A stretch of 64,000 bases of DNA from a virus (Duplodnaviria > Heunggongvirae > Uroviricota > Caudoviricetes), in the IMG/VR virus record IMGVR_UViG_3300005613_000043. The stretch is one strand, 5' to 3'. Made by a program: the position numbers and the translations under genes. Below are positions 1,382 to 47,568 of the stretch, one piece after another. Numbering within the stretch: position 1 is the first letter of the stretch; each line of letters begins with the position of its first letter. The notes under the pieces are model-generated. The model saw only the letters and a program-made list of their open reading frames with translations, was not told the DNA's origin and did not search any database.

Positions 1382-1384
1382 GAG

Positions 1385-1741
1385 TTGATAAAGATGAAAC
1401 TCAGAAAGTGGATTTGTTTAGTTATTGTTTTAGGAGTTTTTGTTACTGTTAAAGCCACACAATTTAAAATAGAAGACGCTACTAGCAATATAGTTGCTTG
1501 GTTTAATAATACTGGTTCTTTAAACATCACTGAAGATTTAATCTGCCCTGCTTGTATTAATCCAGAGGATGTTAATGATATTGATGATGAGGATATTGAA
1601 ACTGATTTGAACACTTATGTTGATATTGCTGGAGACACGATGAATGGAAATCTCACTATGAATGAAAATGCTATTAAAATTGGGAATTGGTGTATTTTGA
1701 ATTCCACTTCAACTAATTTAATAATTACAAATTCATGTTGA
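1385..1741 (+). CDS. small secreted fibre-associated protein sharing the GDTM(N/T)GNLTM motif
   Basis: signal peptide MIKMKLRKWICLVIVLGVFVTVKA; motif GDTMNGNLTMNEN paralogous to the C-terminus of the 512..1381 product. Confidence 0.45.
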   Translation: MIKMKLRKWICLVIVLGVFVTVKATQFKIEDATSNIVAWFNNTGSLNITEDLICPACINPEDVNDIDDEDIETDLNTYVDIAGDTMNGNLTMNENAIKIGNWCILNSTSTNLIITNSC

Positions 1742-3369: not shown

Positions 3370-3417
3370 ACAGAAATATTTAACTACATTAAAACATAAT
3401 TAAATAAGGTTGATAAA

Positions 3418-3768
3418 ATGGAAAAAAAAGATTATTCAATGGTTGTTTTATCAACGGTTTTATTGGTAAGTTTAGGATTAAATGTGATGCCAGAACCCAC
3501 ACATTATTGTGATTCCAGAGAACTAAAAGCATATTGTTTTAGCCTTAGCGAGACATTAAAAACATGCTATACACTTCCTAATAATAAAGGAGGCAAGAGA
3601 TGTTCAGAGGGATGGAAAGAACTTATAATTGCTCCAGAAGGAGTGGAAACAGTTCAGGTAGATGCTAATGGAAAAATATGGGAATGTGAGATAAAGGAAG
3701 GAAAGATAAATAAGTATTCAAATTGTTTTTCAGGAAAATATCACGGATACCTTGGGGAATTTATCTAA
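3418..3768 (+). CDS. small secreted cysteine-rich protein
   Basis: signal peptide MVVLSTVLLVSLGLNV; 8 Cys in 116 aa. Confidence 0.35.
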   Translation: MEKKDYSMVVLSTVLLVSLGLNVMPEPTHYCDSRELKAYCFSLSETLKTCYTLPNNKGGKRCSEGWKELIIAPEGVETVQVDANGKIWECEIKEGKINKYSNCFSGKYHGYLGEFI

Positions 3769-6007: not shown

Positions 6008-6044
6008 ATAAATTTATTTATACTACTAAGTATAAATTCAATTC

Positions 6045-10071: not shown

Positions 10072-10090
10072 CTTAGCATATAACGAAACA

Positions 10091-10112: not shown

Positions 10113-10122
10113 TTTAATATCT

Positions 10123-11247: not shown

Positions 11248-12411
11248 ATGGTTTCATTCAACTTAGAATATAAAGAGGAAAAAAACAAATTCCCTTGGAA
11301 GAGCTATAACTTAGCCACAACTGTTACAGCAGCAAGTACAACAAGAGGTTCATCAAGCGAAACAGTTTATGGTTTGCAACCAATGGGCTTTCTTAAAAAG
11401 TCAATTGACGCAGCAAGAGAAAACATGAGATTCATGGAAGTCGTAAGGCAAGAAGTAATGCCGCCTGGATTCAAAGATTGGGCAATCCCAAAAAGGAAAA
11501 CCTATCTTGCGGATTCGAGCTGGGAAACTTCAGCATCAGAATACGCAGCCCACACAGCATCAGCAGCCACAGGAGAAATAATATGGACAAACATAGACAC
11601 AATGGACAGTGTAATCGTAACTCCTACCAGATATAACTACGGAGTCGCATTAACTAACGATGCAATCAGAAAACATTTACTTAACTTAGTCAATTATGCG
11701 AACGAGGAATTGTCTTACAAATACGAAAACTCAATTGACAATGCAATTAGAGACGCAATATTCGGAACATGCACAACTGGAACAGCAACAGAGCCAACAC
11801 CAATGAGTGATTCAGTTAATGGAGCTCAGACAATTTTCGGCGGAGACGCAACAGATGCCAGTGATAACTTAGATACAGGGGACATATTAACGCCTGAGAT
11901 GATAAAGAAAGCTAAAAGACTTCTAATGAGTACAAAAGGTTACTACTGGGATAGCAATACTCATACAGTTTCATCCACAGCTAAAAATGCTTGGTCGCCA
12001 ACTGATGCAGAGCCATTCGTTCTTTTCGTTGCTCCTGAGCAAATGGAAAGTTTGATGAATGATTCTCAATTCACAAATGCGGCTGAGTTCGGAAGTCAAG
12101 AGCCAGTTTTAACAGGACAGGTAGCAAAATACTGCGGAATTAGGATAATCGAAACTACAAAAGTTCCATCATTTACAGACAACGACAACATAGATGTGCA
12201 AGCATCAAACTTAACAATGGATTTAGATGGTCATATCTGTGCACTGGTTAAGGCACAAAGATGTGGAGCAATGGTTTGGGGACAAAAGGCAGAATTTAAG
12301 ACATTTGACTGGCCTATAGGAGACCAGAAAAGAATGACTTTGAGCATGTCTTATGGAGTAGGCACGATTCACCCCGATGGGATAGTTCGACTAGTCGTAG
12401 CAGATGCTTAG
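11248..12411 (+). CDS. major capsid protein (HK97-fold, putative)
   Basis: 387 aa, follows the scaffold with a TAAATG junction; followed by a T7 tract and hairpins; order terL-portal-scaffold-MCP. Confidence 0.62.
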   Translation: MVSFNLEYKEEKNKFPWKSYNLATTVTAASTTRGSSSETVYGLQPMGFLKKSIDAARENMRFMEVVRQEVMPPGFKDWAIPKRKTYLADSSWETSASEYAAHTASAATGEIIWTNIDTMDSVIVTPTRYNYGVALTNDAIRKHLLNLVNYANEELSYKYENSIDNAIRDAIFGTCTTGTATEPTPMSDSVNGAQTIFGGDATDASDNLDTGDILTPEMIKKAKRLLMSTKGYYWDSNTHTVSSTAKNAWSPTDAEPFVLFVAPEQMESLMNDSQFTNAAEFGSQEPVLTGQVAKYCGIRIIETTKVPSFTDNDNIDVQASNLTMDLDGHICALVKAQRCGAMVWGQKAEFKTFDWPIGDQKRMTLSMSYGVGTIHPDGIVRLVVADA

Positions 12412-17145: not shown

Positions 17146-18438
17146 TTGAGATTGGGAATATGTATACCTTTATATAAAACAGTCAGTGCTAAGTTTTTTT
17201 CTAACTTCATCACTCGATTAATGGAATTGTTCAAGCACCCTAATCTTAAGATTGATGTAATTATGGTTACTTCTACCATAGTAGATGAAGCGAGAAATAA
17301 ACTAATTGAACAGGCATTAGATAGAAAATGTGATTTAATTTGGATGATAGATTCAGACTCTATGATTCAAAAAGGCACTTTTGAAAAATTATTAAAACAT
17401 GATGCTGATTTTGTCTCAGGGTTATACTTCTCAAAAGGGTATCCTTTTCATCCTATAGTTAGGGTTGAAAAAGATGGCATGTCTACTTACCTACATGATA
17501 TTGAGTTTGGAAAGGTTTACGAGGTTCAGGGAGTCGGGCTCGGATGCGCATTAGTTAAAACGAGTATATTTGACGGTCTTGAAAAGCCTTATTTTAAATT
17601 TGAATATAAACGGCTTGAGAATGGAATGCTTGATAAGGTTTCTGAAGATATCTACCTATGCAATTCATTAAGAAAGAAAGGAGTTAAGATACTACTTGAT
17701 ACAAACATAATTATAGGGCATGAGGGAGGCACTATCACTGATTTTGAATACAGGGCTAACAAACCATTTTTGGTTAAGATTTCAAAGATGCGAGACCAAG
17801 CATTGGAGGATTATTCAGAATTTGCTAAAATTTCGCTTAAACAAGCATGGGACAATTTCAGATTCGGGCTCTACCTATACGCCGATGAGTTTAATTTATT
17901 CTTTAAGGATAAAAAAATAACTAATGAGAATCTAATAAAATTCTACAAGACGGCTAAATATTCTATTCCTGACTTGCTTTATTGGCATCTTGGAAGCGAG
18001 AAAAAAATGTTTGATACCCAACTGGTTAATTACCTTAAAAATAAATACGATAAAAACATTGAAATTTTAGATTTTGGGTGCGGAGCTGGAATCAATGCTT
18101 CGCAACTATCACAAGAAGGGTTTAAAGTAACTGGAGCTGACCTTGACGGAAAAATGCTCAATTTCTTCAAGTTTAGGTGCAAAAAACATAATATTAAAAT
18201 GAATTTTATCGAACTTCCATTTAAAAAACCAATTAAGAAAAAGTTTGATGTAATTTTAGCCCTAGATGTATTAGAGCATATTCATGACAGCGAGTTTGAA
18301 AACACGATTAACCTTATTAAATCCCTTAAGAAACCAAATGGTGAAGTAATCGTAACCGCTCCATTTGGAAAGACAAGCATTCATCCTATGCATTTTGAGA
18401 ACTCATCAGAAAAAGAAAAAATGATTAGGGAATTATGA
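17146..18438 (+). CDS. bifunctional family-2 glycosyltransferase / class I SAM-dependent methyltransferase
   Basis: N-terminal GT-A features (IPLYK..., DSD DxD motif, LYFSKGYPFHP); C-terminal motif I LDFGCGAGINA and motif DVILALDVLEHI. Confidence 0.7.
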   Translation: MRLGICIPLYKTVSAKFFSNFITRLMELFKHPNLKIDVIMVTSTIVDEARNKLIEQALDRKCDLIWMIDSDSMIQKGTFEKLLKHDADFVSGLYFSKGYPFHPIVRVEKDGMSTYLHDIEFGKVYEVQGVGLGCALVKTSIFDGLEKPYFKFEYKRLENGMLDKVSEDIYLCNSLRKKGVKILLDTNIIIGHEGGTITDFEYRANKPFLVKISKMRDQALEDYSEFAKISLKQAWDNFRFGLYLYADEFNLFFKDKKITNENLIKFYKTAKYSIPDLLYWHLGSEKKMFDTQLVNYLKNKYDKNIEILDFGCGAGINASQLSQEGFKVTGADLDGKMLNFFKFRCKKHNIKMNFIELPFKKPIKKKFDVILALDVLEHIHDSEFENTINLIKSLKKPNGEVIVTAPFGKTSIHPMHFENSSEKEKMIREL

Positions 18439-26285: not shown

Positions 26286-28115
26286 ATGGAAGAAATAGCA
26301 GTTATGACAAGATTGATAGACGTAAATCTCAAAAGTGGTTTACAAGGTATTCAGAAAGTGGTAACGAGGACGCAGAGCATAATGGGTGGAATGACAGAAG
26401 TAACAAAAACACAAGGAAGAATGTGGGATATTGTAGCCAGTAAATTGGCACATCAATATGGTCTGAATATTGATATGGCTTATTCAGTTGCGAATCTCAA
26501 TGCTACGAAAAAAGAAACAGTTGATATTGTTTATGATACGCTTCGAAGTTTGCGAGATGAGACCAGAGCTAGGGGTGAACTATTAGGTTTATCAAAAGAA
26601 ACAATCGCAGGAATGACATCCCAATTTGACCTTACCAAAAAAGATATTGCTGGTTGGGGAAGTAGAGAGGAAATTATGAATAAGATGATGACAACACAGA
26701 AAAAAACTACAAAAGGTTCTCAGAAATTCCGAATGGAATTATTGTCTGTAATGTTTTTTGGTCAAGCTTTGAAACAAACATTTATGGGTTTGCTCAAGCC
26801 TGCTTTGGAAGTTACTGGTATTTTTGACTTATTGACTGCGACTTTAAAAGTCGTATTTTTACCTATAGCTATGGTACTATTAAAACTCCTGCTTCCAATT
26901 TTTAAATGGTTTATGAATCTATCAAAAGGAGTAAAATTATTTTTAGGGTCGCTTGCGGTTGCTGGAATTATTCTTGGAACAATTTTAATGTTAATAGGAA
27001 CTTTAGGATTAGGGTTAGCAGGGTTAGCAGCAGCATTTGGAAGTTTAGTGCTTTTCTTACCTGTGATTGGAAAATTAGCTTTAGTTTTCGCTGGTCTAAC
27101 TGCTGGAATAATGGCAACGGCAACTGCGGTCTCAGCTCAGGGTGGAGCGGTTTCAAGTTTGCGTGATATTTGGGAAATGCTTCTCTCAAAAATTAAAGGG
27201 ATTCCAATAATTGGCGAAATGGTGGAAGGAATTAGTTATCTAATTACCAGTTGGAGGGAGGGGACACTTTCTTTAGGGGATATCATTTCAGGGGTCTTAA
27301 AAGCAGTCGTTACTAAAATAAAAGAAATTCTTATTTCTGGATTTAAAATGGTTTTTGCATCTCTTAAAGACCTGCCAATAATTGGTAATGTGATTGAATT
27401 ATTTGAAAAAGTTTGGAATGCTATAACTGATTGGATACAAGAAGCGAGGCAAATTGATTCTATTCAAAGTGCATTTAATTTTATCTTAGAAACAATGGGT
27501 GTGCCATCAGGAATAATTACCTTTATCGATAAAGTATGGAATAAGTTAAGAGGATGGATTGACTTAGTTGGGAAAGGCAAATTATTTGATGCTTTTGCTG
27601 ATATTTTAGAAACTTTAGGAGTTCCGCCAGAAATAATCACTTTCTTAACGAAGTTATGGGATAATGTTACATCTTTTATACAGGAAGCAAAACAAATTGA
27701 TAGTTTGACCAAAGCACTTGATGCCATAATTCATGGAATTACTAAATTTGGAGAATGGGGATTTTATATAGCTGGTGAAATTGCTAAAGGGATTATAGAT
27801 GGGCTTAAAGAAAAATTAAAAGACAAAATAAGCATTAGACCGAGTATTTCCCCAAGTGCGGGGGCTATGATGGGAGGAGCAATGATGGGAGGTGGTATGA
27901 GAGATTTCATATGGAGACCAGGGTTTGCTCCAGTTCCATTTTCACCTTCAGATACTTTAGTTGGAACTAAAAGTGGAGGAGGAACTTCTACAGTTATCAA
28001 TGCCAATACTACTTTTAATATATCAGCCACCATATCTTCTGGTATGGATGTGGAAGAATTGGCTAATGATTTAAATGCTCGGTTTGAGGAAACTGTGAGA
28101 ACGCTTATCAGGTAA
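26286..28115 (+). CDS. tail tape measure protein
   Basis: 609 aa, alpha-helical with a central cluster of hydrophobic TM-like segments, G/M-rich C-terminal region; follows the chaperone pair. Confidence 0.62.
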   Translation: MEEIAVMTRLIDVNLKSGLQGIQKVVTRTQSIMGGMTEVTKTQGRMWDIVASKLAHQYGLNIDMAYSVANLNATKKETVDIVYDTLRSLRDETRARGELLGLSKETIAGMTSQFDLTKKDIAGWGSREEIMNKMMTTQKKTTKGSQKFRMELLSVMFFGQALKQTFMGLLKPALEVTGIFDLLTATLKVVFLPIAMVLLKLLLPIFKWFMNLSKGVKLFLGSLAVAGIILGTILMLIGTLGLGLAGLAAAFGSLVLFLPVIGKLALVFAGLTAGIMATATAVSAQGGAVSSLRDIWEMLLSKIKGIPIIGEMVEGISYLITSWREGTLSLGDIISGVLKAVVTKIKEILISGFKMVFASLKDLPIIGNVIELFEKVWNAITDWIQEARQIDSIQSAFNFILETMGVPSGIITFIDKVWNKLRGWIDLVGKGKLFDAFADILETLGVPPEIITFLTKLWDNVTSFIQEAKQIDSLTKALDAIIHGITKFGEWGFYIAGEIAKGIIDGLKEKLKDKISIRPSISPSAGAMMGGAMMGGGMRDFIWRPGFAPVPFSPSDTLVGTKSGGGTSTVINANTTFNISATISSGMDVEELANDLNARFEETVRTLIR

Positions 28116-28121
28116 TTAAAT

Positions 28122-28646
28122 ATGACACAAGCCGCAACTTTAACAAAAGGTTCTATTTCGGTAGAGATAGGTTCAGCTAAAATTGAGCATGACATACAGA
28201 ATACCCTTATTAAATTTGCTATTCCAGTCATAGACGACCAAGATACTACAGTTCCTACTGTTTTTGTCGAAGATATTAAACGATTCATCCAATTGATTAC
28301 AATCACTGGGTATTTATTAAGTGATTCAGCTTCGAGCGCACTTGCCAAAAAACAAGCATTAATCAGCCCATCTACTTTAGGCGCTACTCATCCATTAGCT
28401 GCAAGTTCGATAGGAGCGGTTTGGAAAAGCGGTTCTTTTACTCTTACTTGGCGGAGTGAAACATATACTGTTTATGTTGACAAGATTAAAATTACGGATG
28501 ACTCAGGAAGAAAAGACAAGACTGCTTATTGTACGGATTCACAATATACCACTCAAGGCACTTGTGAAGGTGCAGGAGAAGTTTGGTTTCCATTAGGGGT
28601 GGATAAATATCAAATAATAATTACTCTTACGGTGCAACCTTCATGA
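28122..28646 (+). CDS. distal tail protein candidate
   Basis: position immediately after the TMP. Confidence 0.3.
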   Translation: MTQAATLTKGSISVEIGSAKIEHDIQNTLIKFAIPVIDDQDTTVPTVFVEDIKRFIQLITITGYLLSDSASSALAKKQALISPSTLGATHPLAASSIGAVWKSGSFTLTWRSETYTVYVDKIKITDDSGRKDKTAYCTDSQYTTQGTCEGAGEVWFPLGVDKYQIIITLTVQPS

Positions 28647-28745: not shown

Positions 28746-29570
28746 GTGGTTTTAATGGTAAGAAAAAAATGTAAGCAGTGTAAAGAAGAATTTAGTAGTT
28801 ATGGAAGTAGGAATAGGAAATTTTGTTCTCGGGAATGCTATAATAAGCATAGAAATGTTGGAAGAATAAAAAAGAAATGTAAAAAATGTGGAAAAGAATT
28901 CTATGTTAAGTATAGTAGGAAAGATAAAGCTAAGTTTTGTTCTCAAAATTGTTATAAGATTTATTGGAAAAAAGAAAAATATTGTAGACACTTTAAAAAA
29001 CACACTAAAGAGACTAAAAGAAACATACGTGTAGCTTTGAATAAATTATATCAATCTGGAAAGAAAGTTGCTTGGAACAAAGGTAAAAAGATGCCTTCTA
29101 TTACTGGAGAGAATAGTCATTTTTGGAAAGGTGGAAAAATAATTAAAAAATGTAAATATTGTAATCAAGAATTTAAGTCATTTCCTTCTGATAATCGTAT
29201 TTATTGTTCTTTAATATGTAATTGGAAAGGCATAGTAGGATTACGTGTTAGAGAAAAACATCATAATTGGAAACATAATAGAAAATTAAAAGAACATATT
29301 AGAGAAGGTTTTAAATATATAAATTGGAGAAATTCAATTTTTAAAAGAGATAATTACACATGCCAAGAATGTGGAATAAGAAGTGGAAACGGTAAAAAAG
29401 TTATTTTAAATGCTCATCATGTAAAACCATTTTATAAAATTATTGATGAAAACAATATATCTACCTTAGAAGAGGCAGATAAATGTAATGAGTTATGGGA
29501 TTTAAATAATGGTTTAACTTTATGTCAGCAATGTCATATTAAAACTGACAATTTTGGTGGTAATGCGTAA
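28746..29570 (+). CDS. HNH homing endonuclease with three zinc-finger repeats and NUMOD-like motifs
   Basis: three C-x2-C...FCS..C repeats; C-terminal LNAHHVKP...N...LTLCQQCH (H-N-H). Confidence 0.75.
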   Translation: MVLMVRKKCKQCKEEFSSYGSRNRKFCSRECYNKHRNVGRIKKKCKKCGKEFYVKYSRKDKAKFCSQNCYKIYWKKEKYCRHFKKHTKETKRNIRVALNKLYQSGKKVAWNKGKKMPSITGENSHFWKGGKIIKKCKYCNQEFKSFPSDNRIYCSLICNWKGIVGLRVREKHHNWKHNRKLKEHIREGFKYINWRNSIFKRDNYTCQECGIRSGNGKKVILNAHHVKPFYKIIDENNISTLEEADKCNELWDLNNGLTLCQQCHIKTDNFGGNA

Positions 29571-30226
29571 TGAAAACTAAAAATAAAATCATTGTTGGTT
29601 TTTTGGTAATAATTTTATCTACTACAGGATGGGTTTCCATTACTATGAATAATGTTAGGATAATAGTAAGAAAAGATGAGACAACTTTTAAAGTGCCACG
29701 TGAAGACATAACTTGGTTTTGGATGGTGAGTGGTCGTGAGCTTTATCCTAAACTCTTTGACGGCACAAGCCAGATGAATCGTAATCGTTCTGGAATCAAA
29801 GTAGAAACTTTCACTAATGGAATGGAAGTAACCATAATAAGAACCACTCCTTATATCCGTGGTCCAGTAATAATTGACACTTACAAATTCAGGGGGGATG
29901 TTAAAGATGTTGAATTATTTCCCATGTCGCATACAGTCGAAATATTCAACGCAAAGGGGAAGTTCTATCGTTATGAAGTCAGGGACTTAATTTATGACGG
30001 AGATACTTATAAACTAAACGGAGAGACTGAATTAACCTTTGGAAGAAACATGAAAGTAACTTTACATCCTAATTACAGATGGGCATGGATATATAAAACA
30101 AAATTAATTAAAGCACAATATAATATAAATAGTAATTATGAGAAATATAATTTAAGGTTGTTTGACCCAGCTTCAAATGTAGTTTCAGTAGATGAGAATG
30201 TGTTAATATCGCCAAGTGGTGTTTAA
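29570..30226 (+). CDS. membrane-anchored hypothetical protein
   Basis: N-terminal TM segment IIVGFLVIILSTTGWVSI. Confidence 0.35.
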   Translation: MKTKNKIIVGFLVIILSTTGWVSITMNNVRIIVRKDETTFKVPREDITWFWMVSGRELYPKLFDGTSQMNRNRSGIKVETFTNGMEVTIIRTTPYIRGPVIIDTYKFRGDVKDVELFPMSHTVEIFNAKGKFYRYEVRDLIYDGDTYKLNGETELTFGRNMKVTLHPNYRWAWIYKTKLIKAQYNINSNYEKYNLRLFDPASNVVSVDENVLISPSGV

Positions 30227-32293
30227 ATGAATAAATCAAGATTAATCCAATGGGGGCTTCTTTTTATAGTAATTTTTATCACATTAGGTTTTTCTTCCGA
30301 AACATTGATTAGAGATACTTATGTTAAAACAGATGATTCCAACACTACTAATATCTATACAACTAATCTATACGCTACAAACTTAGAACAAGATTTAGAC
30401 GGAACAGGATTTGATTTAAAAATAGATGATTTAAACATAACTGGAAATGTAAAGAATACTGCAACTTGTGTTGTAGACTTAGATGGTTATGGTGATTATA
30501 CAGATATTCAGAGTTGTATTGATTCTATATCAAATGGAACTGTATATGTTAAGGATAATTTATTTTCAATATCAGACACAATTGAATTGAAGTCAAAAAT
30601 AGCCTTACATTGTGATGCAGGAACAATATTACAGTTAGCAGTTAGTACAGATAAGGATATGTTCAACACAACAAACGGTGCAACAGAAGTAAAAATAATA
30701 GGATGCAATATAGATGCAAATGATGATGGACAAGGGGATAGTTCTTATGCTATCAAATTTTATAATACTACAAATTCATTGGTGCAGAATTGTAACATAA
30801 CAGATTCAAGGGATGGTGGTATTTTTATTTCAGGTATTGATTCAGAGAAAAATGTTATAGACAACAACTGGATTCATTATGACTTCTCAGGAGGTGGTGT
30901 ATTAGTTGATGGCTCTGACAACAAAATCACGAATAATCATATAAGGAATGATAAAATAACCTTGGGTGCAGGGTATTGTATATATGTGAGACAAGCCAAT
31001 AGTACTCTTGTTGATGGTAATTATATGTACGGTGGAGAAATGGGGGTCGGATTAGCAGAGGTAGCAGACGAAGAAAATATAGTGACTAACAATTTTGCTT
31101 TTAATACATTTGACGCAGGATATAAAATTTCAGGTTCGGTTAGAGGTATAATATCTAACAACTGGGCTATAAATTGTACCTATGGGTTTGATGTTTCAGG
31201 AGCAGGAACAAACGACATAACATTAAGTAATAACTATGCTTATGAAAGTGGTGCATGGGGGTTTTATGTTGGTGTGAATAATTCAATAATAATAGGAAAC
31301 ACTGCAAAAAACAGTGGCCAAACTACTGATGCCAGAGCAGGGTTGACTCTTGTAAACGCTTACAACAATACAGTTATAGGTAATCTATTTTACGATGACC
31401 AAGCATCATCAACACAAGATTATGGGATTCTTGAATCAAGCGGTTCAGATGAAAATATATACATAGGAAATAAACTGCGAAACAATAATGTTTCAGACAT
31501 GACTTTAGTTGGAACACATAATATAGTTGTTCAGGATAGCATATCGGGTATGAGCCATTTAAATGCGACAAGAGGTTATGTAACAAATTGGAATGTTTCA
31601 GGAACTCTTACGGTTGGTACTGTTTCAGCTGATTCCATAGAAGGGGTTAATAGTTTGTATTACGCAGAGCCAATCCTTAATCTTCAAATGAATAGGAATA
31701 GTTCTTCTACTATTTACGATTATTCAAAATTTGATAATGATGGAACTTTATCCGGTGGAACTTGGGTATCAAATTGTAAATATGGTGGAGCTTATGATTT
31801 TGATGGAACTGATGATGAAATTACAGTCAGTGCGTCAAGTGAACTAAATATTTCAGAAAGTATAACAGTTATGTGTTTTGTGAAATATGATTATAGCGGT
31901 GCTGTTAAAGGTATAATAGATAAAAGAGCAGGTTCTGGTGTGATTAATTACAGAATAATTGAATCAGCAGACGGAAGTTTGGCTTGTGATTTTTATGATG
32001 GAACTTCTGAAATAATACCTGCTTCTGGAACTGCTTATAATGATGATATATGGCATCATGTAGCTTGTGTTAGAAATGCCGATACCAATAGAGCATTAAT
32101 TTATGTTGATGGAATTTTGGAAGATAATGATACTGACACAACGGTAGGTGTAAACCTCCTCGCAGCGGGGGGATTAACAATAGGAGACACAGGCGAAAGT
32201 GGTAAGAATTTCAATGGAACAATAGATGAAGTCAGACTTTATGATAGAGCATTAACTACAAACGAAATAAAAGCTTTAGCTGTAGGATGTTGA
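30227..32293 (+). CDS. secreted parallel beta-helix (pectin-lyase-like) protein with C-terminal LamG/ConA-like lectin domain; receptor-binding / depolymerase candidate
   Basis: signal peptide; PbH1-type repeats (NCNITDSRDGGIFISG, NNWIHYDFSGGG, NNHIRND, NNFAFNTFDAG, NNWAINCTYGFD, NNYAYESGAWGF); C-terminal ...GKNFNGTIDEVRLYDRALTTNEIKAL is the LamG_3 hallmark. Confidence 0.7.
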   Translation: MNKSRLIQWGLLFIVIFITLGFSSETLIRDTYVKTDDSNTTNIYTTNLYATNLEQDLDGTGFDLKIDDLNITGNVKNTATCVVDLDGYGDYTDIQSCIDSISNGTVYVKDNLFSISDTIELKSKIALHCDAGTILQLAVSTDKDMFNTTNGATEVKIIGCNIDANDDGQGDSSYAIKFYNTTNSLVQNCNITDSRDGGIFISGIDSEKNVIDNNWIHYDFSGGGVLVDGSDNKITNNHIRNDKITLGAGYCIYVRQANSTLVDGNYMYGGEMGVGLAEVADEENIVTNNFAFNTFDAGYKISGSVRGIISNNWAINCTYGFDVSGAGTNDITLSNNYAYESGAWGFYVGVNNSIIIGNTAKNSGQTTDARAGLTLVNAYNNTVIGNLFYDDQASSTQDYGILESSGSDENIYIGNKLRNNNVSDMTLVGTHNIVVQDSISGMSHLNATRGYVTNWNVSGTLTVGTVSADSIEGVNSLYYAEPILNLQMNRNSSSTIYDYSKFDNDGTLSGGTWVSNCKYGGAYDFDGTDDEITVSASSELNISESITVMCFVKYDYSGAVKGIIDKRAGSGVINYRIIESADGSLACDFYDGTSEIIPASGTAYNDDIWHHVACVRNADTNRALIYVDGILEDNDTDTTVGVNLLAAGGLTIGDTGESGKNFNGTIDEVRLYDRALTTNEIKALAVGC

Positions 32294-32296
32294 GAG

Positions 32297-35200
32297 TTGA
32301 AAAGATATGAATATAGTAAAAAAAAAAACTTAATTTTATTTAGTATAGTCATTTTATTTTCTATCTATCTTGTTAATGCAACTATTTATTATAAGTTTCC
32401 TTCTGAAAAGAATTTCACTGAGATTATAGTCTATCCTACTGGAGCCAAATTCAACACCACTAATTTCACTATCATTCCATCTAGTGGGGAAGTGAATGTG
32501 ACTATTATCAATGTGACTGAAACACACTCGTTCTTCAATATAACTGGGGAGAACCAATTAGTTAATATGATATTTCAGAATAGGACTTCGACAGATTTCC
32601 TCTGGGATTTGACAAACCATAACATCACGAAAAAGACAGATTTAGACACTTCCAATTCAACTGTAGTTGCAACTTCGACTCCAAGAATGTTTGTTCTTCT
32701 CAGCGGGCAGTTCAATCTAACAGAAGGCTCTAAAACAAAACTATATGATACTTCTAATAATCTGATAGATGATGAAGTCCCAATTACTATTAAAACCGCT
32801 ACTAATTCCTCTATTCTGATTAATTCGACTTACGACTTTGACGAGATTGACCTTAGGGTAAATGTTACTTCAGTTTCTAATATGACTAATGTAACTTGGT
32901 ATTATAAAGGATTTGACTATGCTATCGCAATAGCAGTTGAAACAGCTAATGTAACTTACGGAAACGGGTTAGTCTTCGACTTAAAAGGAATCAATATCAG
33001 CTCAACTGGGGATAATGAACTAACTTATGTGAATACTACTCTTTGGAATGTGAGCGAGCCAGTTTGGAAATTATATCCCCTTGAGGACTCATATATAAAT
33101 TCAAAATACCCAACTGCTTCGTTTTATGATTACACAAGATTAGAATCAGGGGCTTTATTAAGGAATTACAACTCATGGGCTTGGCTAAAATTTGACAAGT
33201 CATCAGTTAATTACTGCGACAAGGCATACCTCTGCATGTATAGGTATCATGCATATTTATTATCAGACCAAGATTTCAAGCTTTACTATTCGCATAATCA
33301 GACTTGGACAGAAGGGGAATTGACTTGGAATGTAAAACCAGAATGGAATGATGCTCATGTTTCTAACTTAACTATGACTTCTGGAAGTTCAGATGATGAA
33401 TATTACTGCTGGGATATAGCAGACGCTTACTGCGATAATGTAAACGACAACGCAACTTACATGCTAAGAGTAAAGATTGAGACTTTTGACACTGGAACAG
33501 AACATGCAAATTATACAACTGAATCTATAGGAGCTAAGAGGAGTTATGACCTATATGTAGACGAGGCAAACTCAACTGGCAATTTCAACGATTCGGCTGT
33601 GATTGAGCTTTTAAATGTTACTGGAGCTTCAAGGTGGGGTTATCTGGAAATTGCTCCTTCTTCCATTTACTTCCCAGGGTCGAGAGTAAACAATGCAACC
33701 CTTTACATGTATGTCCCAGGAGGGTGCAACCAGTCCCTTAATGTATCAGTCTATAGGACTTACGAAGAAAATACAACTGATACCATGACTTGGGATTCTA
33801 AACCTAAAATAGACACTTCTGACTTGGGAAAAATAGACGAGATAAATATGACAACAACTGGTTGGAAGACGCTTAATATCACCGATATGGTTCAAAGGTC
33901 TGCCTTAAGCGGGGGATGGTTCACTTCTAACATATCTTTAAGGTTCGCTCCAACTACTGAAGGTGGAGACACAACTACAATTCTTGACGGTGGGGAAACA
34001 ACTAAGAGGTTTAACTTTACTACTAATGGAAATAAAACCGATTACATTAAGATTCCAAAATATGTAAATGTGACTTCTGCTTATATTAATTTAACTGGTA
34101 AAACAACTTGGATTGATACAAAATGGAATAATACTCTTCCAGACCCAACCGTTCATCATGTAGTCATTAGCCCGGGAGGTGATGGAGATTATACATGCAC
34201 CGATACTCATGCTGGAATTGGAGATTTTACTCATGCTTCCAGCACTCCTTATGCTAATGCTAATTTCGCATGGAATGTATCGAGTTGGAATACAGCTTGG
34301 TTTAACTGGACTGCTGTATACGGATACGCAAATGTTGAAGGTAGTGGAGTAGGTGGCGGGGATGAATCATACTATATTAGAGGTGGTGATACATGCACTG
34401 AAACTTTGGCTGATATTTGTGCTGAAAGAGAAGATGGTGACAATGCAATTCCAGAATGTACTGAATGGACAGAAAACTCGACAAGCCCTCCAGGGGATTT
34501 CGCTAAAAAAAGCATTTTTAAAGTAACCGCTCCTACTAAAGGAGATGTAATCGCATTAGGGGCTTTTGCTGGGTCTACAGCTGGGCTTAATTTGAAGGTA
34601 GGAATTAAATGGGAAGGAGATTCTTACTTAAAGATTACAATGGAAAATAGAACTTGCGACTTCCCTGAAAATGTTTCAATAGATTTCAACAACGATGGAG
34701 ACTATGATTGGATAAATTCTGGCAATTTAACCACCACAAATAGAACCATTGATTTCGCTTCGGATATTAATACATTTTTAACTACCTGTTCTCCAGATGC
34801 GAATGGATTATGTTCATTCCCGATTGTCATTCATGCAGATGTAAATGGTACAGTTATTCTTGATGATATTGAAATCAATTATACTGGCTCTTGTTTTGCC
34901 TCATGCGAATACGATTCATACGACCCTATAGTTGAGATTGGATTCACATACACCACTAAAGACGCTTACGCTTACTTCAACAGTTCAAATACTTCAGGAA
35001 CAGCTTACGACCCATACTTAGTGGCTAATATTAGCTGGGGTTTAAATGCAACAAGCAACAATGGAACATTTGAGCCATTCGGACAGACAGACACCCAATG
35101 GATTCATAAGGTCTGCTCTGACCCTGAATCTAACGGACCAATTGATATTTACCTTAACTTAACCGATATAGTGAACTCAACAGGAGACAGTTTAACTGAG

Positions 35201-35428
35201 TTACCAGCATGCGTAACAAGTTTCTATCATTACGGAAATTCAACCAATGTTGACTCGGCTTGCGAGGAGAATATAACAGGAAATACAGCCGTTAAAGTCC
35301 TTGATGGGCTAAAGAATGGAACATGCGCTTATATATGGGAGAATCTTACGTTTTCCGATTGTACCGTGGGTGATGCATTTTCGTTCAATTTTTCTTGGTC
35401 TGCAACGACTGAATCATTTGGAGGATAA
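32297..35428 (+). CDS. 1043-aa secreted, extremely sequon-rich adhesin-like protein with DNRLRE/CBM-like domain
   Basis: signal peptide; roughly 55-60 N-x-S/T sequons by hand count; segment YPLEDSYINSKYP...NYNSWAWLKFDKSS...ELTWNVKPEW matches the DNRLRE-type pattern. Confidence 0.5.
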   Translation: MKRYEYSKKKNLILFSIVILFSIYLVNATIYYKFPSEKNFTEIIVYPTGAKFNTTNFTIIPSSGEVNVTIINVTETHSFFNITGENQLVNMIFQNRTSTDFLWDLTNHNITKKTDLDTSNSTVVATSTPRMFVLLSGQFNLTEGSKTKLYDTSNNLIDDEVPITIKTATNSSILINSTYDFDEIDLRVNVTSVSNMTNVTWYYKGFDYAIAIAVETANVTYGNGLVFDLKGINISSTGDNELTYVNTTLWNVSEPVWKLYPLEDSYINSKYPTASFYDYTRLESGALLRNYNSWAWLKFDKSSVNYCDKAYLCMYRYHAYLLSDQDFKLYYSHNQTWTEGELTWNVKPEWNDAHVSNLTMTSGSSDDEYYCWDIADAYCDNVNDNATYMLRVKIETFDTGTEHANYTTESIGAKRSYDLYVDEANSTGNFNDSAVIELLNVTGASRWGYLEIAPSSIYFPGSRVNNATLYMYVPGGCNQSLNVSVYRTYEENTTDTMTWDSKPKIDTSDLGKIDEINMTTTGWKTLNITDMVQRSALSGGWFTSNISLRFAPTTEGGDTTTILDGGETTKRFNFTTNGNKTDYIKIPKYVNVTSAYINLTGKTTWIDTKWNNTLPDPTVHHVVISPGGDGDYTCTDTHAGIGDFTHASSTPYANANFAWNVSSWNTAWFNWTAVYGYANVEGSGVGGGDESYYIRGGDTCTETLADICAEREDGDNAIPECTEWTENSTSPPGDFAKKSIFKVTAPTKGDVIALGAFAGSTAGLNLKVGIKWEGDSYLKITMENRTCDFPENVSIDFNNDGDYDWINSGNLTTTNRTIDFASDINTFLTTCSPDANGLCSFPIVIHADVNGTVILDDIEINYTGSCFASCEYDSYDPIVEIGFTYTTKDAYAYFNSSNTSGTAYDPYLVANISWGLNATSNNGTFEPFGQTDTQWIHKVCSDPESNGPIDIYLNLTDIVNSTGDSLTELPACVTSFYHYGNSTNVDSACEENITGNTAVKVLDGLKNGTCAYIWENLTFSDCTVGDAFSFNFSWSATTESFGG

Positions 35429-35438
35429 TGGTGATGAA

Positions 35439-37442
35439 ATGCCTAAAGTTGTAATCCCCCCATCATCCACAATTCCTTCTTTTCCACCTGCAAGTGTGGA
35501 TGTAGTTTATGGGAAACCGAAAAAAACATCTGTTTATTTTAAAGACGCAAGCAGTGGTTCTGAAAAATCATTTTCTGACTTTTTAATCTTCTGGGACTAT
35601 ATAGTCGAGTTGAATAAACTCAAATCATGCAAATTAACTTTAGTTGGTCTATCAGCAAGTGATTTTACAACTTACGTTAAAAAGAAAAATACATTTAAGT
35701 TATTCTCCGAAGAGCATTTCGCAGGAAAGTTTAAAATAGAGGAAGTCAAGAGAAAAGAGGATTACACAATAGAAGTCAAGGGAATAGGCATGGGAATCAC
35801 CCTACAGGAAGCTGTAACTGACCAGTCAACATATAATTATTATTCCGAGGATACCCCGACTATAGTAACCGAGATATGCACTGAAATGAACATTAATGAG
35901 AATCAGGATTTAGGAAATGTAACTGGCTCGTTCTCATGGCAGGATAAGTTAAGCGCTTTGTTTACTATCTCAAATTATTTCCAAGCCGACTGGTGGGTTG
36001 ACCAAGTATTCCCATTCGATACCGACAGGTTCAATATTAAGCAAAGAAGAGGCAGTGTTCCAGTTGTGAGAAATTACTATGATGACGGCTCTAATAGAAA
36101 TGCAAACATAACTAAAAGAATCAATACTGAATTTCATGTAAATGATATCAGCCTAAGAGGTAAAAATGATGCGGATGTATTCCCAATAGGTCATGCGACC
36201 GTTACAGATGTTGTTGCCGATTCTATTGTTACTTCTTTTCCAATTTATAAGTCAACTTATAAAACAGTTAGAGAGTCTAATTTCGTAATTAGTACAGTAT
36301 TGTGTACAGAAGAGCCTCAATGGGTTCAGCTTCAGGTTTATGACGGGAATGATTGGCATAACTACCGAGAATTAACAGTCAAAGCTAACAGGGTTTCCTC
36401 TTATACTTTAGATGTGAGGAATGTGTCATTAAATGGAATCTGGATGAGACCTTTAGGGTGGAGAATAAGGCTTGTAACCCACGCAAGCAATACATGCGAT
36501 GTTACGATTAGTTTTGCGAGGACTATCCCATTAAGGGTGAGAATGTATATGGTGAATGACTATTATTCTAAACTTGACGCAGATTTTACTGTATCTGAAG
36601 GAGTTCCTTTTGATATTGCATGCCAAGACTCGGTTAGTTTTCCAGATAAGGGGATTGTTAAAATAGGCAACGACTCTATTGGTTATCTTGACAATGAAGG
36701 AAATGTATTAGCTAACTGCATAGCTGACGTATACGCAGGAGCATTAGAAAAGCATAGGGCTGGGATTATAATCTACCCTGTTTATGATGCCGAAGGCAAG
36801 GCTGATACATTCTTAACTGCTAACGTTAGCGCTGGGGTATCGACTTATACAGTAAACGATACAACTGGTTTTCCAAGTTCAGGAAGCATTATCATATCTG
36901 ACCAAGTAATCGACTATACAGGTAAAACATCAAGTTCCTTTACTGGTTGCACTAATAACGAGCCAACCGACTGGACAAGTATTGAAGTTCCCCATTCGCA
37001 ATATACAAGAGTATTTGAATACGACTCGACCAAACATTATCTCCCATCCGCTCCCAAAACAGGAAGCTTGGTTCAATCAGAGAGTTTGAAATCAGGAAAG
37101 TATTTTGACAGTTCGTTGGATGACGAGACAACTGCTGAAGTATTAGCTTCGGCTATAATGGAGGCTAATTTAGACTCTAACGTAATAGCTGAGGGGGGTC
37201 TAATCACCATAGATATAGAAGTCGACCATCCTTGGCTGGAGATGGGAAAGGTAAATTTAGGGGATACAATCTACGTTAATTCTATCTCAACAAGGGCTAA
37301 CATAGACGGAAATTATAGGGTGAAGAAAATTCACTGGTATTTCAACTCTAAATATGGTCACAGGATGATAATAGAAGCGGGTAGCAAGAAGAATTTATTT
37401 GTTGAGAAGTTAATGTCCAAATGGAAGCAATTGGCTGATTAG
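35439..37442 (+). CDS. large hypothetical tail/baseplate-associated protein (no signal peptide)
   Basis: track ORF 35316..37442 trimmed to ATG 35439 just after the upstream stop and GGAGGA/GGTGA; 667 aa. Confidence 0.4.
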   Translation: MPKVVIPPSSTIPSFPPASVDVVYGKPKKTSVYFKDASSGSEKSFSDFLIFWDYIVELNKLKSCKLTLVGLSASDFTTYVKKKNTFKLFSEEHFAGKFKIEEVKRKEDYTIEVKGIGMGITLQEAVTDQSTYNYYSEDTPTIVTEICTEMNINENQDLGNVTGSFSWQDKLSALFTISNYFQADWWVDQVFPFDTDRFNIKQRRGSVPVVRNYYDDGSNRNANITKRINTEFHVNDISLRGKNDADVFPIGHATVTDVVADSIVTSFPIYKSTYKTVRESNFVISTVLCTEEPQWVQLQVYDGNDWHNYRELTVKANRVSSYTLDVRNVSLNGIWMRPLGWRIRLVTHASNTCDVTISFARTIPLRVRMYMVNDYYSKLDADFTVSEGVPFDIACQDSVSFPDKGIVKIGNDSIGYLDNEGNVLANCIADVYAGALEKHRAGIIIYPVYDAEGKADTFLTANVSAGVSTYTVNDTTGFPSSGSIIISDQVIDYTGKTSSSFTGCTNNEPTDWTSIEVPHSQYTRVFEYDSTKHYLPSAPKTGSLVQSESLKSGKYFDSSLDDETTAEVLASAIMEANLDSNVIAEGGLITIDIEVDHPWLEMGKVNLGDTIYVNSISTRANIDGNYRVKKIHWYFNSKYGHRMIIEAGSKKNLFVEKLMSKWKQLAD

Positions 37443-45412: not shown

Positions 45413-45943
45413 TTACTCAGCTCCTGTTATTGCTATTCCCTTTCCATTTATGTTATGATATTTTATATCTCCGCACATTATCCAATCTAATCCGTAATCC
45501 TGCATAACGGCAATTTTTCCAGAACAAAATGCTGTTGCATTGATTTGCTCAACTGTTTTCTCAAGCATCGCTAATCTGATTTGAGTATCTCTTAATTCCT
45601 TCTGGTATTCAACCCTTGGCAAAAACCAAGCATTAAGGGCATTGCCTATCCTGTAATGCCATTCTGAGCAGTGTTTTTTAGTTCCTAACATACAATTAAC
45701 TGTATTTTCTATATGTTTTACCATATCCCAAACATTGAAACGATTAAGACCTGAGATTTTTTCATCAACATAATCGGGATAGTAACTTCCATCAAGCATG
45801 TAATTGCATGTTCCGTTTGTATAGCAGTTTGCCCAGAAGTTCACATCTTGGTTTGTAATCACATCTATTTGTATGTCAGTATCTGCCAATACGCATTGTC
45901 CGATTAGGAAAATTGTGGTTATTAACAATACTATTTTTTTCAT
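45413..45943 (-). CDS. secreted Cys-rich protein
   Basis: signal peptide MKKIVLLITTIFLIGQCVLA. Confidence 0.4.
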   Translation of the reverse strand: MKKIVLLITTIFLIGQCVLADTDIQIDVITNQDVNFWANCYTNGTCNYMLDGSYYPDYVDEKISGLNRFNVWDMVKHIENTVNCMLGTKKHCSEWHYRIGNALNAWFLPRVEYQKELRDTQIRLAMLEKTVEQINATAFCSGKIAVMQDYGLDWIMCGDIKYHNINGKGIAITGAE

Positions 45944-46794: not shown

Positions 46795-47568
46795 CTATTG
46801 TTTTTCTATTGTGAATCCAACAGGCATATAATCGTGGTTAAAATGCCAAGTTCCACCATAATCTATACCATAATCCACATCATGGAAACTTCCACTAAAA
46901 TCAATGTGTGTTCCTTCTCGTGTTCCTACATCCACTTCATTAGCTAATGTTGGATTAAAACCGAACATACCATTGGCTGAAGCATCTAGCAATAAACCAT
47001 TGACATCGGTTGTAAAGCTTGATGATGCATAGACATTCAAATCATCTGCACCACCGGCAGAACCAAAATCAACTTTTGGTGTAGACTTGTAAGTTTGGAT
47101 TTCATCCATTAATCCACCACTTGTTGTATGTGTGAATCCATAGTTGTATGAAGCCCCGTCATCAATTGAACTAACAAATGTTGATGGGAATCTTCCTATT
47201 CTTGTTTGAATAAATGAATTACCATCGTAGTTTTGTGTTATCCATGATTCACCATGATTAACATGTCCGCTTGTATATGTTGATGATATGTAGTTGTAAT
47301 GTGTTACACCATCTGAATGTACTGTATCAAATTCCACTTGATTGCTATACGGATAAGGTTCTACATAATTCATATCCACTCTTCTATCAATTGTGCTATC
47401 TGCGATGCTTGCGTCTACATCAAAATGATATGAATTTATGGACATTACATCATCAAAATTTGGTGTGTGGGTTTTTACTATAAATACCCCAGAACCTTCT
47501 CCATCGATTGTCAATGCCATTACTGAACTAATCGCTAATAGTATTCCTAATATTGCTAATATTTTCAT
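46795..47568 (-). CDS. secreted hypothetical protein
   Basis: signal peptide MKILAILGILLAISSVMA. Confidence 0.4.
   Translation of the reverse strand: MKILAILGILLAISSVMALTIDGEGSGVFIVKTHTPNFDDVMSINSYHFDVDASIADSTIDRRVDMNYVEPYPYSNQVEFDTVHSDGVTHYNYISSTYTSGHVNHGESWITQNYDGNSFIQTRIGRFPSTFVSSIDDGASYNYGFTHTTSGGLMDEIQTYKSTPKVDFGSAGGADDLNVYASSSFTTDVNGLLLDASANGMFGFNPTLANEVDVGTREGTHIDFSGSFHDVDYGIDYGGTWHFNHDYMPVGFTIEKQ

Follow-up and report, generated by a model that had tools for sequence, protein, structure and literature searches.

A tail operon in the 64,000-nucleotide stretch of IMG/VR virus record IMGVR_UViG_3300005613_000043 (hereafter the window, meaning this stretch at its full length) encodes large lectin-type proteins with signal-like N-termini, the most prominent of which, a 1043-amino-acid (aa) protein, holds far more N-glycosylation sequons than its composition explains. 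The same coupling of signals and sequons was found across related viral loci. We consider it likely that four products of the window (30227-32293, 32297-35428, 512-1381 and 1735-3369) are Sec-exported and carry AglB-type N-glycosylation. More tentatively, with a probability of about 0.45, we propose that such exported proteins act on the host envelope and do not join the particle during its cytoplasmic assembly. An earlier note on this DNA, made from the letters alone, had opposed secreted receptor-binding proteins to secreted remodellers of the host surface, and these are the right alternatives. We infer export, signal cleavage, glycosylation, the domain of the host and the role of the proteins from sequence features.

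Sequon excess and N-terminal signals in the window proteins

Sequons were defined as N-x-S/T with x not P, and counts were compared with shuffles that keep either whole-protein composition or local composition (blocks of 20 or 40 aa). The proteins on which the comparison turns are as follows (predicted cleavage sites are marked by an arrow).

32297..35428, plus strand: 1043-aa protein with a signal peptide (VNA↓T), two DNRLRE/CBM96 modules, a module of ~80 aa and a Cys-rich C-terminal domain (866-1043)
30227..32293, plus strand: 688-aa protein with a signal peptide, a right-handed beta-helix and a C-terminal LamG domain
12559..15501, plus strand: 980-aa S/T-rich fibre-like protein with no signal peptide, serving as internal negative control
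11248..12411, plus strand: HK97-type major capsid protein (Pfam Phage_capsid_3), also used to define the virus clade

The 1043-aa protein contains 60 sequons (5.75 per 100 aa), while whole-protein shuffles predict 19.2 (z 10.6) and none of 2000 shuffles reached 60; shuffling within 20- or 40-aa blocks gave nearly the same result (~20 expected, z 10.5-10.8). The excess is specific for register and direction, as N-x-S/T occurs 60 times, [ST]-x-N 23 times, N-[ST] 19 times and N-x-x-[ST] 16 times. NxT exceeds NxS by 47:13, and 63% of the Asn residues of this protein lie within sequons. The earlier note had counted 55-60 sequons by hand, about 20 in the beta-helix protein and about 2 in the capsid protein; our counts of 60, 18 and 2 agree with it, and the density of the 1043-aa protein exceeds the expectation from shuffled sequences, a comparison which that note had put forward as a check. 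Its description of the adhesin genes as "massively enriched" applies to the 1043-aa protein. It does not extend to the 688-aa protein, in which 18 sequons against 12.2 expected (z 1.9, p ~0.045-0.07) are a marginal excess that barely exceeds composition, nor to five signal-bearing proteins that show no excess: 29570-30226 (1 observed, 2.2 expected), 1385-1741 (4, 2.1 expected), 45413-45943 (2, 1.3 expected), 46795-47568 (0, 2.8 expected) and 3418-3768 (0 sequons). Within a second cluster of signal-bearing genes near the start of the window, z was 4.3 for 11-346, 4.0 for 512-1381, 1.4 for 1385-1741, 3.6 for 1735-3369 and -1.0 for 3418-3768. Enrichment is hence strong in the 1043-aa protein and moderate in 11-346, 512-1381 and 1735-3369.

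When the open reading frames (ORFs) of at least 150 aa in the window were pooled, the eight with signal-like N-termini held 108 sequons against 50 expected (reverse motif 54), and the 31 others held 69 against 69 expected (reverse motif 66). The sequon-dense proteins are rich in Asn (fraction 0.09-0.10) and in Ser and Thr (0.18-0.21). The 980-aa fibre-like protein had 14 sequons against 11.6 expected (z 0.8), its signal-less homologues in three related loci (L055, L057 and L043) gave z values of 0-0.5, and the capsid protein had 2 in 387 aa against 3.6 expected. As an outside control, 18 baseplate and fibre structural proteins of phage T4 together contained 125 sequons against 107 expected (reverse motif 121), with a top z of 2.2.

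Signals were judged from the hydrophobic segment, the charge of the n-region and the presence of a small-x-small site. The eight proteins that the earlier note had listed as signal-bearing do have such N-termini, mostly with a small-x-small site after the hydrophobic segment, and similar N-termini were found on 29570-30226 and 11-346. Each of these ten proteins has exactly one hydrophobic segment, which is N-terminal, and the n-region charge is +1 to +5, except in 11-346, where there is none. Candidate cleavage sites are VFA↓K and AKA↓A (512-1381), VKA↓T (1385-1741), VNA↓T (32297-35428), GFS↓S (30227-32293), VLA↓D (45413-45943) and VMA↓L (46795-47568); the N-terminus of the 688-aa protein reads MNKSR-LIQWGLLFIVIFITLGFS, followed after the site by SE. 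In the 218-aa product of 29570-30226 no small-x-small (AxA) site is present, and helix residues K6, G10 and L12 are invariant; this protein is more likely an uncleaved type II signal anchor. The other N-termini are signal-like, and by their sequence features would be Sec-type signals cleaved by signal peptidase I. A C-terminal anchor or archaeosortase signal is absent from the listed signal-bearing proteins, each having its single hydrophobic segment.

Signal-coupled sequon excess across related loci

To the 79 IMG/VR loci around capsid relatives we added loci from metagenome-assembled genomes (MAGs) and contigs, giving 88 related loci in which ORFs of at least 150 aa were scored. The 63 signal-like ORFs contain 1389 sequons against 692 expected (2.0x; reverse motif 675), with z above 3 in 51% of them; the 830 other ORFs contain 2404 against 2190 (1.1x; reverse motif 2115), with z above 3 in 1%, and several high-z ORFs filtered as "other" also have hydrophobic N-termini, among them the gene for the 1900-aa protein described below. 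The difference between the two classes (Mann-Whitney p ~1e-14) persists without the window and its two nearest relatives. The NxT:NxS ratio is 860:529 in the signal-like class and 1222:1174 in the other; T/S composition is alike in the two, and the NxT preference is confined to the signal-like class. An Asp or Glu at position -2 was found in 9.2% of 1388 sequons, compared with a D+E composition of 12%, and the lack of an acidic excess there makes a bacterial PglB-type sequon unlikely; we accordingly rejected a PglB-type system. Because the sequon excess and the NxT bias are both coupled to signals, the pattern fits an extracytoplasmic oligosaccharyltransferase, unlike composition, a cytoplasmic enzyme or chance. 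In the full-text literature searched, we found no account of sequon enrichment coupled to signals in the structural modules of tailed viruses. A signal peptide together with a sequon excess forms a simple sequence signature, by which a tailed-virus contig can be recognised as archaeal and its genes for interaction with the envelope can be located.

A Nanoarchaeia-binned locus (L007:182-7128; JANQNG010000077.1) has three consecutive sequon-dense genes upstream of its head module. They encode a 152-aa protein (z 4.9), a 264-aa protein (z 5.1) with a later transmembrane segment, and a 1900-aa protein with a hydrophobic N-terminus and 127 sequons against 51 expected (z 12.6-13.8).

The 1043-aa protein and its family

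In two stretches, the 1043-aa protein matches the CBM96 model PF24517 with 77.6 bits (cut-off 26) and the DNRLRE model NF033679 with 65.6 bits (cut-off 34). The 688-aa protein matches Pfam Beta_helix (1.6e-16, 60.8 bits), NosD (40.2 bits) and Laminin_G_3 (4e-23, 82.7 bits). The DNRLRE, beta-helix and LamG modules named in the earlier note are thus borne out by Pfam and NCBIfam matches above cut-off. The LamG part of the 688-aa protein also matches PHROG 8510, "virion structural protein" (2e-15), and shows weak similarity to the fimbrial protein TafC. The profile of the 1043-aa family matched PDB entries 8wab and 7vbo through the CBM96 domain and nothing in the PDB beyond it, and the protein has no match in the phage database. 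AlphaFold2 models were of low confidence for the 1043-aa protein (pLDDT 41.6, 5 sequences) and for the 667-aa protein encoded next to it (pLDDT 44, 7-sequence alignment). A paralogous relationship between the two DNRLRE proteins of the window was not retained, as BLAST between them was insignificant, though both pass the domain model.

Relatives are few: a collection of 5.8 billion proteins yielded only five, and 1.84 billion cluster representatives yielded 118, seven of them at E <1e-30. The family alignment comprises the window protein and four homologues (P0002-P0005) that are 38-63% identical to it and hold the same gene position in loci L001-L004. All five members have signal-like N-termini (e.g. 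VLA↓Q, TFA↓Q, VFS↓I) and sequon z values of 7.7-10.7, and the database gene call for the window protein (P0001) has the same start as the one used here. Thirteen sequons and eight cysteines are invariant across the five. Sequon Asn residues are conserved at 79%, other Asn residues at 38%, and the mean column identity is 58%; the sequons of this family appear to be under purifying selection, and the invariant cysteines suggest an extracytoplasmic fold. The C-terminus of the family is conserved and the N-terminus variable, which is the opposite of the usual fibre pattern.

A further 114 more distant relatives are mostly signal-bearing and sequon-rich, with 2261 sequons against 1051 expected. For most of them the only part in common with the 1043-aa protein is the ~80-aa module encoded at 34650-34890 (aa ~785-865), which follows the pattern D-x-D-G-D...W...C-S-x-P-I-V-I-H...I-x-I-x-Y and has no family name. 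Those relatives that carry a name are archaeal and include a cellular PGF-pre-PGF surface protein of Aenigmarchaeota, encoded on a 115-kb contig, in which the module is found again; the ~80-aa module was considered as a PGF-pre-PGF domain and rejected, since that domain lies elsewhere in the Aenigmarchaeota protein. Many of the distant relatives (among P0095-P0205) begin, after the signal, with a recurring TFNDSS..KNLTF motif.

The tail-module locus

The 688- and 1043-aa genes lie in the following context.

26286..28115, plus strand: tape-measure protein of 609 aa, with a weak PHROG match (phrog_305, E 0.004) and internal hydrophobic segments
28122..28646, plus strand: Dit-like protein of 174 aa, named by position only, with no signal and 0 sequons
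28746..29570, plus strand: HNH homing-endonuclease-like insertion (Pfam HNH_2) between the Dit-like gene and the exported-protein genes
29570..30226, plus strand: 218-aa protein with an N-terminal hydrophobic helix and a conserved domain of ~200 aa ending in NVRLFDP, without sequon excess
35439..37442, plus strand: conserved tail-module protein of 667 aa that has neither a signal peptide nor a sequon excess

The tape-measure gene is homologous to the genes at the corresponding position in L001, L076 and L036, and the Dit-like protein is 56% identical to the product of L001 5850-6407 and 28% identical to that of L076 19153-19629, each encoded right after the tape-measure gene. In L001 and L002 the tape-measure and Dit-like genes are followed, in this order, by genes for a LamG protein of 1150-1190 aa that has a hydrophobic helix at its N-terminus, for the CBM96 protein and for a 657-665-aa homologue of the 667-aa protein; the partial contigs L003 and L004 have the same order for the genes they cover. 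The HNH insertion is missing from this site in L001 and L002. The LamG domain of the 688-aa protein aligns with the LamG repeats of the L001 protein at the same position and also matches that of L002. Only the LamG parts align, however, and we therefore rejected the idea that the 218- and 688-aa proteins are a split form of the 1150-1190-aa protein.

Homologues of the 218-aa protein begin their similarity at residue 1-6 and are encoded directly after the tape-measure and Dit-like genes in L076 and after the tape-measure gene in L036. In L043 a LamG domain is joined to this domain, and in L076 it continues into a longer C-terminal extension that has no annotation. The 667-aa protein has homologues with 42-62% identity (P0086-P0091), and its gene directly follows the CBM96 gene wherever the context was read. 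Alignment with these homologues places the true start of ORF 35316-37442 at 35439. PHROG, Pfam and NCBIfam gave no match for the Dit-like, 667-aa or 218-aa proteins; sequence and profile searches of the PDB returned nothing for the 667-aa family, the 218-aa family or the glycosyltransferase domain described in the next section, and an IMG/VR scan with the 667-aa family returned no relatives. The 667-aa protein is hence without any PDB or family match.

The gene junctions are tight: TAATG joins the HNH stop to the start of the 218-aa gene, TAAATG joins the 218- and 688-aa genes, and gaps of 3 and 10 nucleotides precede the 1043- and 667-aa genes, the latter gap holding a Shine-Dalgarno-like GGAGGA/GGTGATGA before the ATG at 35439. 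The exported-protein genes are predicted to be translationally coupled within the tail operon. Just upstream of the tape-measure gene, two small ORFs (25708-26052 and 25973-26281) overlap in the layout expected of programmed-frameshift tail-assembly chaperones.

Other signal-bearing genes and a glycosyltransferase

Signal-bearing proteins are also encoded outside the tail operon, and a candidate glycosyltransferase lies in the structural module.

11..3768, plus strand: five clustered signal-bearing genes that precede the terminase gene, namely 11-346, 512-1381, 1385-1741, 1735-3369 (DNRLRE) and 3418-3768 (small, Cys-rich)
45413..45943 and 46795..47568, minus strand: two signal-bearing proteins of the early/accessory region, without sequon excess
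17146..18438, plus strand: GT-A-type glycosyltransferase (DxD) fused to an S-adenosylmethionine (SAM) methyltransferase, with methyltransferase Pfam matches, a match to PHROG 1574 and weak matches to glycosyltransferase PHROGs

In the first cluster, 512-1381 and 1385-1741 contain a GDTMTGNLTM-type tail-fibre motif and have weak PHROG tail-fibre matches (E 1.5e-4 to 9e-3), and 1735-3369 matches DNRLRE NF033679 with 59.2 bits (4.8e-16). The accessory protein 45413-45943 has BLAST homologues in L001 (18319-18906) and L002 (18037-18660). The neighbouring signal-bearing ORFs there (L001 19013-19837 and L002 17434-18033), whose position matches that of 46795-47568, contain 0 sequons where 1.5-1.7 are expected.

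Across the related loci, 25 ORFs homologous to 17146-18438 were found (for example L057:13558-14877 and L008:8243-9544), often beside the portal gene. The fusion to a SAM methyltransferase occurs in the window and in two relatives. In an 18-member alignment of the family, D69 and D71 are invariant; six members match Glycos_transf_2 (best 3e-8) and nine match Anp1. In L057 the homologue lies immediately upstream of the gene for a 1509-aa signal-bearing protein (z 9.8). The enzyme could remodel a lipid-linked or protein-linked glycan, an idea that has been raised for methyltransferases of Asgard viruses (10.1101/2021.07.29.453957). Two family members have weak matches to TET-associated glycosyltransferases, so DNA is also a possible target and the enzyme could modify DNA instead. 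No GT41 N-glycosyltransferase was found among the window proteins scanned, in which the only glycosyltransferase is GT-A/GT2-like.

The virus and its host

The window belongs to a head-tailed double-stranded DNA virus, with genes for a large terminase (4613-6007), a Mu-like portal (6432-7685) and the HK97-type capsid protein. It has a G+C content of ~33% and encodes a D5-type primase-helicase, inteins and homing endonucleases; the 64 kb contain no tRNA genes. Terminal repeats were looked for in the window and none were found; we take it to be most of the genome of such a virus, whose host is most likely an archaeon.

The capsid protein has 76 homologues, every one of them metagenomic, and its sole match in the phage and archaeal-virus database is a virus of Altiarchaeum. 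In a search of prokaryote contigs limited to one genome per species, all six capsid relatives fell in archaeal MAGs (Methanosarcinales, Nanoarchaeia, Woesearchaeota, Thermococci and an unclassified archaeon). The closest named relative, with 72% identity, sits in a Heimdallarchaeota MAG, and a viral-like contig from a Lokiarchaeota bin encodes a near relative of the 1043-aa protein. Both of these contigs are entirely viral, and this host link therefore rests on binning only, so that Asgard archaea are a lead. Terminase and primase gave distant BLAST matches, bacterial and archaeal mixed. The earlier note had held that assignment to a bacterium lacking general N-glycosylation would refute its proposal; the capsid relatives in archaeal MAGs and the archaeal relatives of the 1043-aa protein point the other way, and the host is very probably an archaeon. 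The archaeal export and AglB idea of that note is supported by the coupling of signals and sequons, by the archaeal relatives and by the absence of a PglB-type sequon. Its link to methanogen adhesins and disaggregatase found no support: the Pfam scan gave no Disaggr_repeat or Disaggr_assoc domain at E up to 0.1, the closest relatives lie outside methanogen bins, and the Methanosarcinales-binned relative shares just 42% capsid identity.

Proposed role and alternative explanations

In the scheme that we favour, the Sec pathway would translocate 30227-32293, 32297-35428, 512-1381 and 1735-3369, and probably the small neighbours of the latter two as well. Signal peptidase I would cleave their N-terminal signals, the 218-aa protein staying behind as a signal anchor, and the host oligosaccharyltransferase AglB would glycosylate N-x-T/S sites on the outer face of the membrane. 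The mature products would be heavily glycosylated, probably disulfide-bonded, all-beta proteins built of LamG, DNRLRE/CBM96 and pectin-lyase-type beta-helix modules. Produced late, along with the tail, they would act beyond the membrane on the envelope of the host, which is rich in glycans; they would bind the envelope, and the beta-helix protein may also cleave it. The effect would be to condition or breach the envelope for release, to mask receptors and so spare progeny from loss on debris and infected cells, or both. An envelope role is favoured because exported, envelope-directed proteins of head-tailed archaeal viruses have a published precedent (PMC11576556), because exported non-structural proteins are encoded beside tail genes in phages as well (lambda Lom, T5 Llp), and because conservation in the 1043-aa family is reversed relative to fibres and the genome encodes signal-less fibre or tip candidates (12559-15501 and 35439-37442). 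Several points weigh against this proposal. The genes lie inside the tail operon between the tape-measure and Dit-like genes and the 667-aa gene, an order that is kept in at least four viruses and suits structural proteins no less than accessory ones; the enriched signal-like ORFs are on the capsid-gene strand in 32 of 32 cases; and the domain content and its shuffling are typical of receptor-binding proteins. A coat of 60 glycans suggests a long-lived extracellular protein and not a transient lysis factor, and any cleavage activity of the beta-helix protein is putative. Five signal-bearing proteins have no sequon excess, and export and glycosylation are themselves deduced from sequence.

Alternatively, the exported glycoproteins might be genuine receptor-binding fibres or adhesins in a two-compartment assembly, a reading that we regard as possible but doubtful. 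The capsid and tail would form in the cytoplasm, and the fibres would be exported, glycosylated, held under or on the envelope and docked to the tail tip (e.g. to the 667-aa protein or a Dit-like ring) once the membrane is breached. The tight coupling in the tail operon, with the CBM96 gene always directly upstream of the 667-aa gene where the context was read, speaks for such fibres, as does the layout of the 218-aa family, in which a conserved N-terminal domain after the tape-measure and Dit-like genes is followed by variable lectin C-termini, a classic arrangement of attachment and receptor-binding parts. So do the tail-fibre motif in 512-1381 and 1385-1741, the "virion structural protein" match of the LamG part of 30227-32293 and the structural orientation of every enriched signal-like ORF. 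Dense, conserved glycosylation would suit survival outside cells, and the T4 record, according to which short tail fibres "can be added after phage completion", offers a precedent for late attachment. Comparable glycan-binding domains occur on the HFTV1 virion (10.1101/2024.12.09.627619). Against it stand the lack of a tailed-virus precedent and the topological problem, the variable N-terminus and conserved C-terminus of the 1043-aa family, the signal-less fibre-like protein 12559-15501 in the same genome, and the tailed virus HRTV-DL1, which is unaffected by deletion of aglB (PMC10384203). That this clade, possibly of Asgard or DPANN viruses, finishes its particles outside the cytoplasm, with Sec-exported, AglB-glycosylated fibres joining the tails after membrane breach, we likewise hold to be rather improbable.

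The N-terminal helices might instead be membrane-active or oligomerisation segments of cytoplasmic tail-tip proteins, the sequons being structural or glycosylated in the cytoplasm, possibly by a viral enzyme. Chloroviruses and mycobacteriophages are known to have their virions glycosylated in the cytoplasm, the 218-aa family has a conserved helix (K6, G10, L12) without a cleavage motif, the tape-measure proteins of the clade have hydrophobic segments too, and the structural module includes a gene for a conserved GT-A glycosyltransferase, which in L057 immediately precedes that for a sequon-rich protein. However, GT41 enzymes of the HMW1C type are the only ones known to read N-x-S/T in the cytoplasm; that of the virus is GT-A, and no GT41 gene was found among the window proteins scanned, on which ground we rejected an HMW1C-type system. 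Most of the N-termini show a full n/h/c signal structure with small-x-small sites, the sequon excess and NxT preference are strictly coupled to the signal-bearing class, and the invariant cysteines suggest an extracytoplasmic fold, which together leave cytoplasmic tail-tip proteins an unlikely explanation. We think it similarly unlikely that these are conversion-type surface adhesins that alter the sticking of infected or carrier cells (aggregation, disaggregation or symbiont attachment) and owe their late-operon place to chance. Such adhesins would account for the modules in common with cellular archaeal surface proteins, for the weak TafC similarity of the LamG part and for relatives binned with DPANN and Asgard MAGs, lineages dependent on cell-cell contact; yet the window showed no integrase or lysogeny module, coupling to tail genes takes the place of independent promotion, and a C-terminal anchor or archaeosortase signal is lacking. 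Finally, the sequon excess could be a by-product of N/S/T-rich composition or of beta-solenoid repeats, with hydrophobic N-termini that arose by chance or from mis-called starts. The proteins are indeed N- and S/T-rich and the excess of the beta-helix protein is marginal, but all nulls keep composition, local composition included, the reverse and shifted motifs are at expectation, the equally S/T-rich signal-less fibre has no excess, the pattern repeats in 88 loci and 114 distant relatives, and the database gene call agrees with the start of the 1043-aa protein used here. As the excess survives composition-preserving shuffles, we rejected an artefact of this kind, which is highly improbable.

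Relation to known systems

Self-assembly that takes place purely in the cytoplasm has its textbook example in the tailed viruses. A parallel to the envelope role proposed here is found in head-tailed viruses of sheathed archaea, for whose SH-like proteins, which carry Sec signals, secretion and an action on the host envelope during egress have been proposed (PMC11576556). As in the window, a head-tailed archaeal virus encodes Sec-signal proteins. The SH-like proteins, however, are amyloid-like mimics of host sheath subunits of 150-350 aa, whereas the present proteins are lectin or beta-helix proteins of 290-1900 aa encoded in structural operons, and the signal-coupled sequon excess of the window clade is not part of that work (PMC11576556). 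The small signal-bearing proteins 29570-30226, 45413-45943, 46795-47568 and 512-1381 fall within the SH-like range in size and signal, the large proteins being outside it in size, and the type represented by 45413-45943 and 46795-47568 might belong to the sheath-like class.

Archaeal viruses with an envelope or with lipids are known to have glycosylated virion proteins, and the spikes of haloarchaeal pleolipoviruses (HRPV-1 VP4 and HFPV-1 ORF4) are N-glycosylated (PMC10384203). These spikes combine an export signal with host N-glycosylation on a host-recognition protein, as proposed here; they are membrane-anchored on budding enveloped virions and for that reason pose no topological problem, whereas the window virus is of the lipid-free head-tailed type that assembles in the cytoplasm. 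Among tailed viruses, the turret, baseplate hub and fibres of HFTV1 bind glycans, with no signals or glycans reported (10.1101/2024.12.09.627619), and HRTV-DL1 shows faint glycostaining of virion proteins and has an ORF24 with 9 sequons, though deletion of aglB is without effect (PMC10384203). HFTV1 and HRTV-DL1 ORF24 set carbohydrate-binding or hydrolase-like domains against a glycosylated S-layer, much as proposed here; no signal peptides are reported there. Cytoplasmic N-glycosylation of an adhesin at many N-x-S/T sites is known from Haemophilus HMW1/HMW1C, where a GT41 enzyme is responsible (10.1101/744037). That system requires GT41, while the sequon excess of the window is coupled to signals, pointing to an extracytoplasmic oligosaccharyltransferase.

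Archaeal surface proteins (S-layer proteins, PGF-pre-PGF proteins, methanogen adhesin-like proteins, the Methanosarcina disaggregatase and the Tafi tip) share with the window proteins a Sec signal, dense N-x-S/T and beta-helix, DNRLRE or LamG modules. Unlike them, the window proteins are virus-encoded in a tail operon and have no C-terminal anchor, PGF-CTERM or Disaggr Pfam domains. The Lom protein of phage lambda, Llp of T5 and Cor are exported, non-virion accessory proteins encoded beside tail genes that act at the cell surface, for instance by masking receptors. They resemble the window proteins in bearing signals and in lying in or beside the tail-fibre region. They differ in being small, unglycosylated outer-membrane proteins or lipoproteins, and not conserved multi-domain lectins coupled to baseplate genes.

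Large, signal-bearing lectin proteins with apparently selected sequons thus occur clade-wide inside the structural operons of archaeal tailed viruses. Should they be part of the virion, both the way of assembly and the reliance on host glycosylation would be new for Caudoviricetes, and host range would depend on the host N-glycan; a two-compartment assembly, if true, would be the first of its kind and would provide the first obligatorily host-glycosylated receptor-binding proteins in this class. If they are off the virion, they would form a large and previously unrecognised group of viral effectors that are exported to target the archaeal envelope, bearing on how archaeal tailed viruses leave S-layer-covered cells and avoid binding to them again. 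Little is known of Asgard surface glycoproteins (PMC11284389), and the possible Asgard association, drawn from binning only, would add interest.

Other genes of the window and its relatives

Homing-endonuclease-like genes lie at 21913-22740 (minus strand), 28746-29570 (plus), 56452-57285 (minus) and 45940-46740 (minus); their types are LAGLIDADG with a helix-turn-helix (HTH), HNH_2, HNH and DUF559-like, and two of them sit within the structural gene block. An intein-containing gene at 50137-53609 (minus) is apparently in pieces: 51615-53609 (minus) comprises an N-extein (phrog_1250) and an intein with a LAGLIDADG domain, 50137-50811 (minus) opens with the C-terminal splicing block of an intein followed by the remainder of phrog_1250, and an HTH/zinc-finger ORF (50744-51628) lies between the two. 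The gene for the D5-type primase-helicase (18917-20446, minus) lies midway through the structural gene block but on the other strand, and a SPFH/Band-7 membrane protein (43136-43993, minus) is encoded in the accessory region.

In the more distant, Methanosarcinales-binned L006, the capsid match is covered by a 668-aa ORF (9047-11053). Two ORFs near the capsid gene there (5629-7602 and 14093-15386) have GT2-like and methyltransferase-like N-terminal motifs, judged by eye, and no signal-bearing sequon-rich ORF was seen in the 21 kb read. In the window, the portal gene is followed by one (7682-9457) that encodes a fusion of ASCH and LigD-type 3'-phosphoesterase domains. At the same post-portal position, the Heimdallarchaeota-binned L091 (2055-6944) encodes a 1629-aa fusion of a DNA methylase, an ATP-dependent ligase and an Apyc1-like metallo-beta-lactamase. 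The related virus L002 carries PTPS-, QueC- and TGT-family genes (19882-21934), which suggests a DNA modification of the 7-deazaguanine type.

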